Shown: positions 12,470-31,700 of the stretch, one piece after another
Position numbering within the stretch: position 1 is the stretch's first letter
How the letters are laid out: every line of letters begins with the position of its first letter
From: Methanobacteriota archaeon
GTDB taxonomy: Archaea; Thermoplasmatota; Thermoplasmata; SG8-5; JAGLSY01
NCBI GenBank assembly: GCA_020696385.1
Contig: JAEHCQ010000005.1
Coordinates: 27,336-91,335 of the forward strand
Reading direction: 5' to 3'
DNA: 64,000 nucleotides
Translations under genes and position numbers: made by a program
Notes under the pieces: model-generated
The model's input: the letters and a program-made list of their open reading frames with translations, nothing else
What the model was told of the DNA's origin: nothing
Databases searched by the model: none

Positions 12470-12684
12470 GGCAAAACCTCGATGGAGAGGGGATGACCGT
12501 TATAGATAAAAACTTAATGCCAATATTTTTTTATTTATATTATCGGGATTCATTATCGTTAATACACTGGCTCATAAAAAACGATGGCATAATGTAATTA
12601 TTGTCATGTAAAATCTAACACAATCGCATTTCGCGTAATAACCTATATCTATCTGGATAATGAATATAGTATAGAGGATAATTC

Positions 12685-13203
12685 ATGGAATGTCGTGGAT
12701 CTGTTATTTTGGGCTATTTCAAATACATAAAAAAGACATGGGGTCAGCTTGGCGAAGATGAATGTGCTAAAGCTGTTGGCCTGGGTCCTGGCAAGGTCAA
12801 AGAAGCCATATGGTATGATATACGATACAGTGAGAACATACTGGAATGGATATACAAGAACAAAGGTGAAGAAGCGGTTGTCAACTGCGGCACATACACC
12901 GTGAAGGATCTAGGGTTCCTATCATACATTGTCAGATTTGCCAATGTGAAAAAGATAATAGGGCGCGCATCGGAAAGCCATAAGGATGCTTTCAAAGGTG
13001 ATGGCTCCCTCAAGGTGGACATTAAGGACAATAGCGCACTGATAACAATGAAGAACACTGCGATAAGCAAATATTCCTGCCTGGCCTGGAGAGGATGTTT
13101 TATCGGCGCACTGGAGATGACGAACACAACCGGCACTGTAATAGAAAAGCAGTGCCAGCTAAAAGATGCGGACCATTGCGAATTTATTATGGAATGGTCC
13201 TAG
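12685..13203 (+). CDS. V4R-domain protein
   Basis: C-terminal GALEM...VIEKQCQLKDADHCEFIMEW typical of V4R domains. Confidence 0.7.
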   Translation: MECRGSVILGYFKYIKKTWGQLGEDECAKAVGLGPGKVKEAIWYDIRYSENILEWIYKNKGEEAVVNCGTYTVKDLGFLSYIVRFANVKKIIGRASESHKDAFKGDGSLKVDIKDNSALITMKNTAISKYSCLAWRGCFIGALEMTNTTGTVIEKQCQLKDADHCEFIMEWS

Positions 13204-13389
13204 CCACTGCAAATTTGTCATAGAGTGGGTCTGACCATTGCGAATTTATTATGGAATGGTCCTAGCCACTGCAAATTTGTCATAGAGTGGGTCTGACCAT
13301 TGCGAATTTATTATGGAATGGTCCTAGCCACTGCAAATTTGTCATAGAGTGGGTCTGACCATTGCGAATTTATTATGGAATGGTCCTAA
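13173..13389 (+). repeat. Tandem array of seven 31-bp units alternating A-B-A-B-A-B-A (62-bp period)
   Basis: A = ccattgcgaatttattatggaatggtcctag (the V4R gene end); B = ccactgcaaatttgtcatagagtgggtctga; 21/31 identical. Confidence 0.95.
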
Positions 13390-13433
13390 AAAGCCAAACA
13401 AATTAATTTTATACACTACCACCATCCCGTCCC

Positions 13434-13529
13434 ATGAATGTAATTGACCTTGTAGCCGAGCTTGTTTCTATACCCAGAGCACACCCACTTTTTTCTTTTA
13501 AACCTCGCTGTGCTGGATCGGGCTCCTAA
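13434..13529 (+). pseudogene. Truncated 5' fragment of the M20 peptidase (MNVIDLVAELVSIP then 17 unrelated codons)
   Basis: First 14 codons identical to the intact gene; stop at 13527-13529. Confidence 0.75.
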
Positions 13530-13680
13530 ATCAAGCCCATTTCATGTGCTTGATAAAATAGATGCGTGGACTTTGTCCACATCTAAAAAAGAAAAAAGAC
13601 GGACAAATTAAATCAAGCCAGCTGACTTGATCAAAATAAATGCGTGGGTTCAGTAGGTGAAGTCGCATTTAAAAAGAAAG
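13527..13680. mobile_element. Two tandem copies of a double-hairpin dispersed module (third copy at 31476-31568, opposite strand); mobility inferred
   Basis: AATCAA(G/A)C..loop..(G)(C/T)TTGAT-AAAA(T/A)A(G/A)ATGCGTGG..loop..C(GC)AT(C/T)TAAAAA. Confidence 0.6.
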
Positions 13681-13775
13681 TCGCCCGACCCTGCTCACTC
13701 GGTATTGATTGAACCGTAGATTAGTAAATGAGTAAATAAGCAAAATAATTCTATATCCTAGTGCTATTCAACCCC

Positions 13776-14852
13776 ATGAATGTAATTGACCTTGTAGCCG
13801 AGCTTGTTTCTATACCCAGTACACTTGGAAAGACCACGGATATCGAGAACTTCGTGGCTGGCCAGTTATCCGCAATTATCGATACAGAGTTCATCGAGGT
13901 CCCGGGCAAGGGCAGGTGCGTGCTTGCCCGTTCTATCGCGGATGATAAAAAGCCGACCATAATCTTCAATGGGCATCTGGATACTGTCGAGGTGTGCAAT
14001 GGGTGGACAAAGGATCCCTTCAAGCCAGTGATCGAAGGCGATAAGATGTTCGGCCTAGGAACCGCTGACATGAAAGGCGGAGTGGCAGTTGCCATGCTGG
14101 CATTTCAAGAAGCTGTAAGAAGAGGCATCAATGCGATATTTGTCGGGACCATTGATGAGGAAGGAGATTCGGCGGGTGGCTTTGCTATCAAGGATCTGGG
14201 ACTAAAAGCAGATCTGTGCCTGATAACAGAACCCAGCAATGAGAAGATAATGCAGGGCTGTCGCGGCAGGTACGTGGTGGATGTGAACGTGAGCGGAAAG
14301 AGCGCTCACGGAGCTGTGCCCGAGAAAGGGGTCAATGCGATCACAGAGGCTGGCCGCCTGCTCTCCAGATTGGATGAGTTACCCCTAATTCATCATGATG
14401 TTCTGGGAAAGGGTTCCGTATGCCCACTCAGCGTGGGTGGAGGAACCACCACATTATCGGTTCCGGAAGAATGCCGCATTGTCATCGACAGGCATGTTGT
14501 CCCAGGCGAGACAAAGGAAAGTGTGATGCAGGACATACGCAACCTGGCTGGGAAGATAGACAGCCAGGCGACATTCGATGTGGCACTGAACCAGGAAAGA
14601 CCCACACCTTTCCTGGAGCCATATATCACGCAGGATGATGAATTGACGCGCCGATTCATCAGCACAGTCAAAGGCGATATCGCCTACGGGAAGTCAGTAG
14701 GCGATTACAATATATTTGCCACCATGTGCCCCACGATAGTCCATGGGCCAGTAGGGGAGAATTGGCATTCACCAGATGAGTGGGTGTCTATTTCTTCAAT
14801 AGAAAGATGTCTGGAGAACTACATGAGATTCCTTGATGCTTTCAAGGTCTAA
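13776..14852 (+). CDS. M20 family metallopeptidase/deacylase (ArgE/DapE-like)
   Basis: FNGHLDTV, GLGTADMKGG, DEEG, ITEPS, GKSAHGA, HSPDEWV. Confidence 0.92.
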   Translation: MNVIDLVAELVSIPSTLGKTTDIENFVAGQLSAIIDTEFIEVPGKGRCVLARSIADDKKPTIIFNGHLDTVEVCNGWTKDPFKPVIEGDKMFGLGTADMKGGVAVAMLAFQEAVRRGINAIFVGTIDEEGDSAGGFAIKDLGLKADLCLITEPSNEKIMQGCRGRYVVDVNVSGKSAHGAVPEKGVNAITEAGRLLSRLDELPLIHHDVLGKGSVCPLSVGGGTTTLSVPEECRIVIDRHVVPGETKESVMQDIRNLAGKIDSQATFDVALNQERPTPFLEPYITQDDELTRRFISTVKGDIAYGKSVGDYNIFATMCPTIVHGPVGENWHSPDEWVSISSIERCLENYMRFLDAFKV

Positions 14853-15004
14853 TATCTCACATTAATCGTATATCACCATAGACTAACATATGGCTAACAT
14901 ATGATAGAATTTACCTATATATCATATATATGAAGATATATTCAATATATTAAGTAGATACATTTATCTATTAATTGTCATTCAACCACCAGATAGGTGC
15001 TAAT

Positions 15005-26851: not shown

Positions 26852-27536
26852 TAATGAAGCCGCTCTTGACAGATCATCATATGTTTCCACACACGTGGAG
26901 ATCACACCATCCGATACCTTGAAACTTGTTGAGGGAAAGCTGATAGGCGAGAGTTTGCTTGGGCCTACTGGCATTAGGGAATTGTTCATCAATGCCCTGG
27001 TTCTCGTGTTCTATCTGGTCCTGCTTTCTATTCCATTTGTTTCATTTGCCTTTGTCAGTGGGGGGATGAGGTGGATAATTGTTGTCATGGTGGTGACAAC
27101 AATCGCCCTCTACACTGTCTATGTTATGAACATGGGCATCCAGAAGAAGGCATGGAAAAAGACGATCATGGAAAAGAAATACTTCTCGGGTGATCTTTCA
27201 CGAGCGAATGACATAATCACAAGGGGAGCTGGCGGATATAGCTACAGCCAGCAGTTGATGAGAGAGATGATGGCGGAAGCCATGATAGAGAAGATCAGAC
27301 TGGGAAGAGGAATGACCACCAGAGAGATCGAGATGGCCATTGATGAGCCTGAAAGATTCAGGGATATCGTTGATGATGAGATTATAGCGACCTTCATACT
27401 GGCCAATCAGAAAAAGGCAGAGGGATGGAGCGATAGGATCTCCCGAAAGAAGAGTGATCGGGAGAAGACCGAGAGCGGTCGTAAATTCATGTTAGAGATC
27501 AAAGATATATTAGAAAGAGTGGAGGACTGGGAGTGA
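26832..27536 (+). CDS. Membrane protein of the MoxR operon
   Basis: Two TMs; overlaps both neighbouring genes. Confidence 0.7.
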   Translation: MMIMANNNEAALDRSSYVSTHVEITPSDTLKLVEGKLIGESLLGPTGIRELFINALVLVFYLVLLSIPFVSFAFVSGGMRWIIVVMVVTTIALYTVYVMNMGIQKKAWKKTIMEKKYFSGDLSRANDIITRGAGGYSYSQQLMREMMAEAMIEKIRLGRGMTTREIEMAIDEPERFRDIVDDEIIATFILANQKKAEGWSDRISRKKSDREKTESGRKFMLEIKDILERVEDWE

Positions 27537-31473: not shown

Positions 31474-31700
31474 CTCTTTTATTTTTTTAAGATGCGACTT
31501 TATCATTTGATCCCACGCATCTTTTTTATCAAACAAATTTGTAAAAGATTCAGGTAATGAGTTTGATTCGATATGTTTAGAGGACGCGAGGTGGATGAGA
31601 ACGGAGTTCGACGAGATTTTTCTGAATATAATGAAGAAAAAGCGAGCAAGACCTGGATGCTGAAAGCAGACAGGTTGCTGATCCCCTCGCGTCCGCTCTT
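31474..31700 (+). mobile_element. 222-bp structured unit ending in a direct copy of the tRNA-Arg 3' end; mobility inferred
   Basis: atcccctcgcgtccgctctt at 31459-31478 and 31681-31700; inverted degenerate copy from 31582; double-hairpin module at 31476-31568. Confidence 0.75.

Follow-up and report, generated by a model that had tools for sequence, protein, structure and literature searches.

A small folded non-coding cassette between two copies of a gene start, at an M20 peptidase locus and at other gene and tRNA ends of a Thermoplasmata archaeon

Introduction

Archaeal integrated elements flanked by attachment (att) sites, among them tyrosine-integrase viruses, plasmids and cryptic elements, occupy tRNA genes and the 3′-distal parts of protein genes; they are several kb in size and their att sites measure 8–69 bp (Krupovic et al. 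2019, PMC6563490). Other described systems that must be considered for short dispersed sequences are the prokaryotic MITEs (miniature inverted-repeat transposable elements; reviewed in PMC10969869) and the repetitive extragenic palindromic (REP) elements and REPINs with their RAYT transposases, which are of the Y1 HUH type (PMC3116915). Here we describe the region upstream of an M20 peptidase gene in a stretch of 64,000 nucleotides (hereafter the window; positions 27,336 to 91,335 of contig JAEHCQ010000005.1, assembly GCA_020696385.1). It belongs to a metagenome-assembled genome (MAG) of a Thermoplasmata archaeon, 2.28 Mb in 50 contigs, which we call G000; G001, G002 and G003 are genomes of the same genus, and f1, f2, f3 and so on denote families of the class that were sampled for comparison. 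Coordinates are window positions unless a contig is given. The start of the M20 gene is present twice, and the two copies enclose a folded sequence, cassette E. We think it likely that the 47-bp repeat found here and the diverged promoter copy next to it are the halves of a long direct target repeat around E, a dispersed, non-coding and structured sequence that is spread by recombination.

E resembles the att-flanked archaeal elements in several respects: direct repeats of the target end surround it, the gene is kept intact, both tRNA and protein-gene ends are used, copies are stacked in tandem and one of the two repeat copies may be foreign. It differs in being only 92–218 nt long and free of genes, with repeats of up to 318 bp, and in that one and the same core is found at about 40 genes and tRNAs, each with its own repeat, gene 5′ ends with their promoters being targets as well. 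Unlike integrase-borne elements, E was not found to be accompanied by an integrase. For att-flanked elements, the review of archaeal integrated elements cites She et al. 2002.

With MITEs, E shares its small size, the lack of coding capacity, the presence in many copies, the mostly intergenic location, the polymorphism between close relatives and the flanking direct repeats. However, its ends are asymmetric and a repeat search gave no terminal inverted repeats, the leader plus the motif CCTCGCTGTGCTGG not being the reverse complement of CTGCTCGCTCGG. Furthermore, the repeats are 17–318 bp long and often non-identical, whereas those of MITEs are short and fixed, and no parent insertion sequence or transposase was found. 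A variable-stem hairpin with conserved flanks and many copies is also reminiscent of REP/REPIN elements, and many E-positive genomes have a single-copy Y1_Tnp gene. On the other hand, E has a size of ~92 nt with a long A-rich loop and it has long repeats, whereas REPs carry no target duplications; moreover, no E adjoins the Y1 gene in 12 genomes.

Like the attC sites of integrons, E is a recombination-site-like unit of variable length with conserved ends and a variable stem that is constrained by structure. In contrast to attC, it is dispersed, bounds no open reading frame (ORF) cassette and forms no array next to an integrase and attI, although no separate search for intI was made. attC sites lack flanking copies of adjacent gene ends. 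As in a retroposon of the short interspersed element type, an A-rich tail closes the minus strand of E and repeat length is variable. On the other hand, the copies look like alleles and not like initially identical sequences that have decayed, and the four genomes of the genus gave no reverse transcriptase (RVT_1) match. We found no description of an E-type element in the literature.

Results

A duplicated gene start around a folded cassette

An exact direct repeat of 47 bp (13431–13477 and 13773–13819) includes the ATG codons at 13434 and 13776, and its two blocks are separated by 295 bp (13478–13772). A repeat search extends it to 87 nt with 83% identity (72 identical positions; 13396–13482 versus 13738–13824). 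In the 35 nt 5′ of the exact block the two copies match at 22 positions, gapless and in register (counted by hand). Since only about 10 matches would be expected from a chance identity of ~30% in AT-rich DNA, the two promoter-like parts are homologous and not just similar. The features of the locus are as follows.

13396–13482, plus strand: displaced repeat copy c1, composed of a promoter-like part (13396–13430), the exact block (13431–13477) and 5 further bases
13434–13529, plus strand: dead-end ORF of 31 aa (MNVIDLVAELVSIPRAHPLFSFKPRCAGSGS and stop), the first 15 codons of M20 followed by read-through into the cassette
13485–13702, plus strand: cassette E, 218 nt (dispersed copies, motif scan, covariance model, fold)
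13485–13502, plus strand: T-rich leader of E (motif scan)
13503–13516, plus strand: 5′ motif of E, CCTCGCTGTGCTGG (motif scan)
13515–13523, plus strand: stem arm of E, GGATCGGGC (fold, stem covariation)
~13527–13682, plus strand: two nested hairpin-pair modules, with hairpins near 13530–13554, 13559–13585, 13612–13631 and 13637–13671
13683–13691, plus strand: stem arm of E, GCCCGACCC (fold, stem covariation)
13691–13702, plus strand: 3′ motif of E, CTGCTCACTCGG (motif scan)
13703–13737, plus strand: spacer of 35 bp between the 3′ end of the cassette and c2, absent from G002
13738–13824, plus strand: repeat copy c2, composed of a promoter-like part (13738–13772, with the TATA-like TTCTATAT) and the exact block (13773–13819), continuous with the intact M20 gene
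13776–14852, plus strand: intact M20 gene for an ArgE/DapE-family deacylase of 358 aa (Pfam Peptidase_M20 and M20_dimer)

Copy c1 adjoins the T-rich leader of the cassette with a gap of 2 nt. Except for the dead-end ORF the insert is non-coding, and no integrase fragments were present in it. An earlier note, made from the letters of this stretch, had pointed out the exact 47-bp repeat at the ATG context, the 295-bp insert, a diverged promoter copy with the same spacing and the 31-aa dead-end ORF of the upstream copy, all of which we recovered. Its description of the insert as miniature also holds (218 nt, non-coding), as does the choice of a protein-gene end, here the 5′ end of M20, as the target. 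The spacer begins with TATTGATTGAACCGTAG and shows a faint likeness to the 3′ end of the upstream gene, judged by eye and without statistics.

The copy of E at M20 is the only one in the window, where the covariance model described below matches at 13486–13553 and 13641–13702. It is predicted to fold as a closing stem around four hairpins, and the predicted fold is somewhat better on the minus strand (z −3.6 versus −2.3). The leader contains a run of six T residues (13489–13494) directly after the stranded gene start, and T-runs occur on both strands. This T6 run probably acts as an archaeal oligo-T terminator, in which case the stranded promoter would yield a short dead-end transcript only. 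A scan of positions 12500–14500 with Rfam 15 on both strands gave no match at an E-value ≤1.

A hairpin module related to the second module of E (13609–13682; match at 39 of 50 positions) is found in the trailer of a tRNA-Arg gene at 31483–31533. It is oriented the opposite way and lacks the E core. Such modules seem to be building blocks common to different cassette types of this genome.

Empty sites in close relatives

In G002, G001 and G003 the orthologue of the 172-aa gene upstream of M20 also sits directly 5′ of M20, at a distance of 48, 68 and 34 bp, respectively, compared with 572 bp here. Given that the two genes are 34–68 bp apart without the insert in three genomes of the genus, the M20 locus corresponds to an insertion. 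The earlier note had proposed to look for an empty allele at orthologous loci; the insert-free loci of these three genomes provide it and confirm the insertion reading.

Ten other G000 insertions were checked. Nine are empty in G002, whose one uninterrupted sequence matches both repeat copies, and one is common to G002, repeats included. G002 in turn has its own repeat-flanked E insertions; for at least one of them, L064, the matching site of G000 is empty. E is an insertion polymorphism between congeneric species and is normally located just outside a gene terminus or a tRNA end.

The locus is present in a second public assembly (GCA_020714265.1), where the 6-kb contig JAEHCP010000070.1 encodes an identical upstream protein and agrees with the window at 100% identity along 5 kb that contain both insert junctions; the sole difference concerns the units of a tandem array in front of c1. 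Searches gave no additional assembly. The MAG G002, whose contigs bear NODE names in the SPAdes style, has an accession series of its own (JAEHCO01). In a genome of family f6 that consists of one contig, the same arrangement of E and repeats is seen at two of three copies.

Structure and distribution of the E family

The core of E measures ~92 nt. It opens with the T-rich leader, which reads CCACTTTTTTCTTTTAA or GAAGCCTTTTCTTTTAA, and continues with the motif CCTCGCTGTGCTGG and the first arm of a 9-bp stem; TCC and a loop rich in A come next, and the second, complementary arm and CTGCTCGCTCGG complete it. The loop is 40 nt long; longer members hold one or two hairpin-pair modules within it, the copy at M20 having two, and the family ranges from 92 to 218 nt. 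The sequence of the stem varies between copies yet stays complementary. Pairing was observed in 87.8% of cells compared with 66.7% in shuffles, and changes on both sides of the stem in 44 cells compared with 14.8; none of 500 shuffles reached the observed values in either case. A shift of the 3′ partner by a single column is enough to make the pairing collapse. The mispairs comprise five G.T and six A.C, and as the two are similarly frequent they do not indicate an RNA strand.

A covariance model built from 22 minimal copies of E gave 41 matches in G000. They are scattered across 13 contigs, some alone and others in groups of two or three whose members are separated by target copies; G002 holds at least 20 copies. 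Full-length matches were obtained in f1 (4 of 4 genomes), f4 (9/9), f2 (2/2), f3 (1/2), f6 (5/5), f12 (7/7), f15 (2/2) and f19 (1/1). The same covariance-model search did not find E in the remaining families that were sampled from the class, among them f7 (0/15), f9 (0/16), f11 (0/10), f13 (0/15), f18 (0/17) and f20 (0/12).

Two orthologous sites are occupied in both G000 and G002 by cassettes of different length: 159 nt (C11:492508–492666) versus 93 nt (C11:675800–675892), and 202 nt (C33:199745–199946) versus 92 nt (C22:239286–239377). This difference in module content means that modules are gained or lost in place or that one E is swapped for another. We had considered using the identity between E copies as a clock for insertion age and dropped it, since the differing module content at orthologous sites suggests replacement in place or gene conversion. 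The two E copies most similar to each other share 97.9% identity and lie at unrelated loci, while their flanking repeats are only 81–94% identical.

Flanking repeats and polarity

When flanks of 250 nt are compared, the direct repeat around 18 of 27 motif-paired copies of E exceeds the 95th percentile obtained from 1000 random control positions. With flanks of 400 nt, 31 of 40 copies score at least 17, the repeats being 17–318 bp long and 75–100% identical. The upstream repeat copy adjoins the T-rich leader with a gap of 0–9 nt, and the downstream copy starts 0–49 nt past CTCGG (35 nt at M20). In several cases perfect repeats abut E directly (17, 22, 24, 32, 47 and 64 bp).

About 1% of 1000 random positions in G000 show a local direct repeat with a score >44 whose copies are ~100–200 bp apart. 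Additional gene-end duplications without a recognisable E core may account for some of these high-scoring repeats.

The arrangement is polar. In a manual tally of the assignable loci the intact gene end or tRNA is on the CTCGG side of E at 16 loci and on the leader side at one, the truncated repeat copy being the one at the leader side. These loci include ten gene 3′ ends, all antiparallel to E, and four 5′ ends, all parallel, M20 among them; the remaining ones are tRNA ends. C11:299751 would make an eleventh gene 3′ end, as the stop codon of the ORF appears to fall in the spacer. An independent E insertion in G001 (contig C459; L038 1230–1480) occupies the same convergent intergenic region as C33:252806 of G000. 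It has the opposite orientation and duplicates the last 23 codons of the other gene, following the same polarity rule, and by reading all five differences between its duplicated codons are synonymous or stop-to-stop. With a long stretch of the terminus present on both sides of E, the target gene survives.

The longest of these repeats, ~318 bp with 81% identity, flanks the E copy at C50:1552–1692 in G000 (C50:1230–2030). Each repeat copy comprises a whole tRNA-Phe gene together with the 3′ end of the Y1 (IS200-type) transposase gene, of which the genome has just one, so that two diverged tRNA-Phe genes are found in tandem with E at their junction.

Differences between the two repeat copies

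Where the repeats are coding, the two copies differ 18, 10 and 75 times at codon positions 1, 2 and 3, respectively (103 in total; chi-square p ~1e-16), and the codon differences are 66 synonymous versus 22 non-synonymous. The M20 locus contributes 3, 5 and 5 to these counts, its 'coding' part having been over-extended into the promoter, and without it the bias is stronger. The share of third positions (73%) compares with an estimate of ~46% for a duplication followed by neutral decay of the redundant copy. This excess means that the repeat copies resemble two functional alleles, and not a gene and its decayed duplicate.

In a three-way comparison with G002 the outer part of the copies is G002-like and the inner part deviant, often around a perfect central block. 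At C33:252806 the last nine codons of the intact gene differ synonymously at almost every codon from both the stranded copy and G002, and at C3:2427 the stranded copy retains a Gly-His extension that is also present in G002. From these sequence comparisons, one part of each repeat pair would appear to stem from the functional gene of another lineage.

The promoter region of M20 itself can also be compared with G002. By eye, c2 matches G002 at 26 of 34 positions and c1 at 22 of 34, with 7 versus 4 informative sites, and in a BLAST search the orthologous site of G002 was matched by the c2 block only. Both comparisons make the gene-proximal promoter the more G002-like one and leave the idea of the earlier note, that the insertion had replaced the promoter of the gene, without support. 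Should one of the two be called odd, it would be the stranded upstream copy (7 versus 4 sites, weak either way). The more general notion that the element brings its own copy of the target end fares better across the family, where the differences are allele-like (75 of 103 at third positions), while the M20 locus points the other way.

Searches for a mobilising enzyme

No match to RVT_1 was obtained in G000, G001, G002 or G003, although the same search was positive in control genomes. A dedicated tyrosine integrase was not found, the single Phage_integrase match of G002 being XerA-like. The Y1_Tnp gene is single-copy in G000, G001 and G002, and in G000 one E lies ~320 bp from it. In contrast, no E was present within ~2.5 kb of Y1_Tnp in the genomes of 12 relatives, and an intact Y1_Tnp was found in none of seven tested genomes of the E-positive families f12 and f15, fragments being present in one only. 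We therefore rejected a RAYT-like Y1 transposase as the mobiliser.

Microhomology between leader and target at the junction was not significant (4.62 versus 4.17 matches per 16 nt, p=0.064). No longer element with the ends of E was seen, and a search of IMG/VR viral contigs for the exact end motifs, made with the minimal-length pattern only, gave no match.

Genes and tandem repeats around the insertion

Two further features precede c1.

12685–13203, plus strand: upstream gene of 172 aa (ORF), the last 31 bp of which are unit A of the array
13171–13388, plus strand: tandem array of 62 bp, 3.5 units (TRF and repeat search), units 100% identical

The C-terminus of the upstream gene product is weakly V4R-like (Pfam V4R, E-value 0.0049, under the cut-off). 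The match of the M20 protein to the NCBIfam DapE-ArgE subfamily model likewise falls under the cut-off of that model. The M20 protein is 88% identical to its orthologue in G002, 72% in G001 and 69% in G003, and a search for closer relatives in a large protein collection found no protein of 88–100% identity.

Within the array, unit A corresponds to the native 3′-terminal 31 bp of the upstream gene, stop codon included (...HCEFIMEWS and stop). It alternates with unit B, a diverged form of the same gene end with its own in-frame stop (...HCKFVIEWV and stop), and there is no E between the units. The second assembly contains 1.5 units compared with 3.5 in G000, which indicates that the array is polymorphic or was not resolved by the assembly. 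The last A unit, the 42-nt intergenic stretch and c1 are jointly colinear with the ancestral gene-to-gene layout of G002. Just 3′ of the M20 stop codon, at 14883–14954, two short tandem repeats (periods 11 and 19) are present.

Discussion

We rate E as an integrative, non-autonomous element. In the explanation that we favour, and consider likely as stated at the outset, E would travel with a copy of the target terminus, and homologous recombination of the host within this terminus would install the cassette or spread it between diverged lineages. This could occur by an ends-in (Campbell-type) event involving E and its target copy or by a double crossover importing a filled allele. By either route a perfect block is expected at the site of the exchange, and the perfect 47 bp at M20 would represent this recombination block. 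The stranded upstream promoter would then drive the 31-aa ORF only.

A number of observations weigh against this explanation. Some copies of E in family f4 have no flanking repeat. A donor lineage for either repeat copy was not found among 40 relatives, nor did metagenome contigs match both junctions or the 35-nt gene start. The positional mosaic test (p ~3e-7) is partly inflated by the alignment of edges that are possibly non-homologous. At M20 the pattern of a native outer and an imported inner part is not clean, the gene-proximal promoter being nearer to G002, and the A/B array without E sits upstream at this very locus. The combination of a 97.9% identical pair of cassettes with flanking repeats of 81–94% identity could mean that E is homogenised by gene conversion. 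Finally, recombination alone fails to explain about 40 targets of which only one in ten checked is common to G002.

We also advance, as a tentative possibility, a version in which E and a permuted copy of a gene terminus (~100–500 bp) constitute 'gene-end cassettes' of a new, enzyme-free and homology-driven kind. These would enter the corresponding terminus in other lineages by host ends-in recombination, a foreign gene end or promoter being brought in and the native one left stranded.

Of the alternatives, a transposon-type mechanism survives best, although we regard it as rather unlikely. Here, an enzyme acting in trans would join the ends of E to widely staggered positions, producing a target duplication of variable length, one copy of which would later be replaced, through homologous exchange, by the functional allele of another lineage. 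Perfect repeats of 17, 22, 24, 32, 47 and 64 bp directly abutting the cassette are what such a reaction would leave behind, and nearly identical copies of E at unrelated targets, as well as the single site in ten that is common to G002, also speak in its favour. However, we know of no transposase that gives duplications of 17–318 bp. No reverse transcriptase was found in the genus, and the only tyrosine recombinase match in G002 is XerA-like. The Y1 gene is missing from the E-positive family f12 and does not adjoin E in 12 other genomes, the microhomology at the leader is not significant (p=0.06), and the third-position bias is far above that expected from duplication followed by decay.

It is quite improbable that E is an immobile structural or regulatory hairpin of the host, such as a bidirectional terminator, next to which template switching during replication produces local tandem duplications. 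The deep conservation of E across families and its T-runs on both strands would suit a host structure of this kind, and local duplication as such is suggested by the existence of E-T-E-T arrays, by the E-less tandem array next door and by the ~1% of random G000 positions with strong local repeats. Yet the empty sites lack both E and the duplication, slippage predicts identical copies with random decay rather than differences of the synonymous type, and the 16-to-1 polarity is not predicted.

Still less probable is a remnant of an integrase-borne virus or plasmid that integrated by attP × attB recombination at the M20 5′ end and subsequently shed almost all of its DNA. Integration at tRNA genes and in distal portions of protein genes is indeed seen in archaeal elements, which have att sites of 8–69 bp and can stack in tandem (PMC6563490). 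However, the same 92-nt core occurs at about 40 targets with a separate repeat for each, and the minimal 92-nt copies already display the full architecture. In addition, the insert is devoid of integrase fragments and IMG/VR contains no exact match to the E end motifs in the minimal-length pattern. The earlier note had spoken of a miniature or residual integrative element. The 'residual' part is not borne out, since the cassette at M20 is one of ~41 copies of a family with a 92-nt core at different targets, and an integrative element in the sense of one with an integrase finds no counterpart, none having been found to accompany E.

An assembly artefact, in which strain variants of one region were concatenated around a dispersed repeat, might be suspected in a 50-contig MAG with an array that differs between two assemblies and with repeats that often terminate contigs in relatives, but it is made very unlikely by the identical junctions in the second assembly, by the same architecture in the independently assembled G002 and in the single-contig f6 genome, by the insertion that G000 and G002 share with its repeats at an orthologous site, and by junctions that have no common k-mer-length overlap able to mislead an assembler.

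If our reading holds, a very small folded cassette is present dozens of times at gene termini in this uncultured Thermoplasmata group, and its copies mark the exchange of gene ends and promoters between species over tens to hundreds of bases. This bears on how archaeal genomes without obvious transposases or integrases gain insertions, on the rewiring of promoters and terminators and on the origin of the duplicated tRNA ends of this lineage. For annotation, it implies that short dead-end ORFs and 'duplicated gene starts' are footprints and not genes. Should the 'gene-end cassettes' prove true, archaea would possess a means of horizontal exchange on a fine scale that has so far gone unrecognised, and introns and tRNA-end cassettes might derive from such units.

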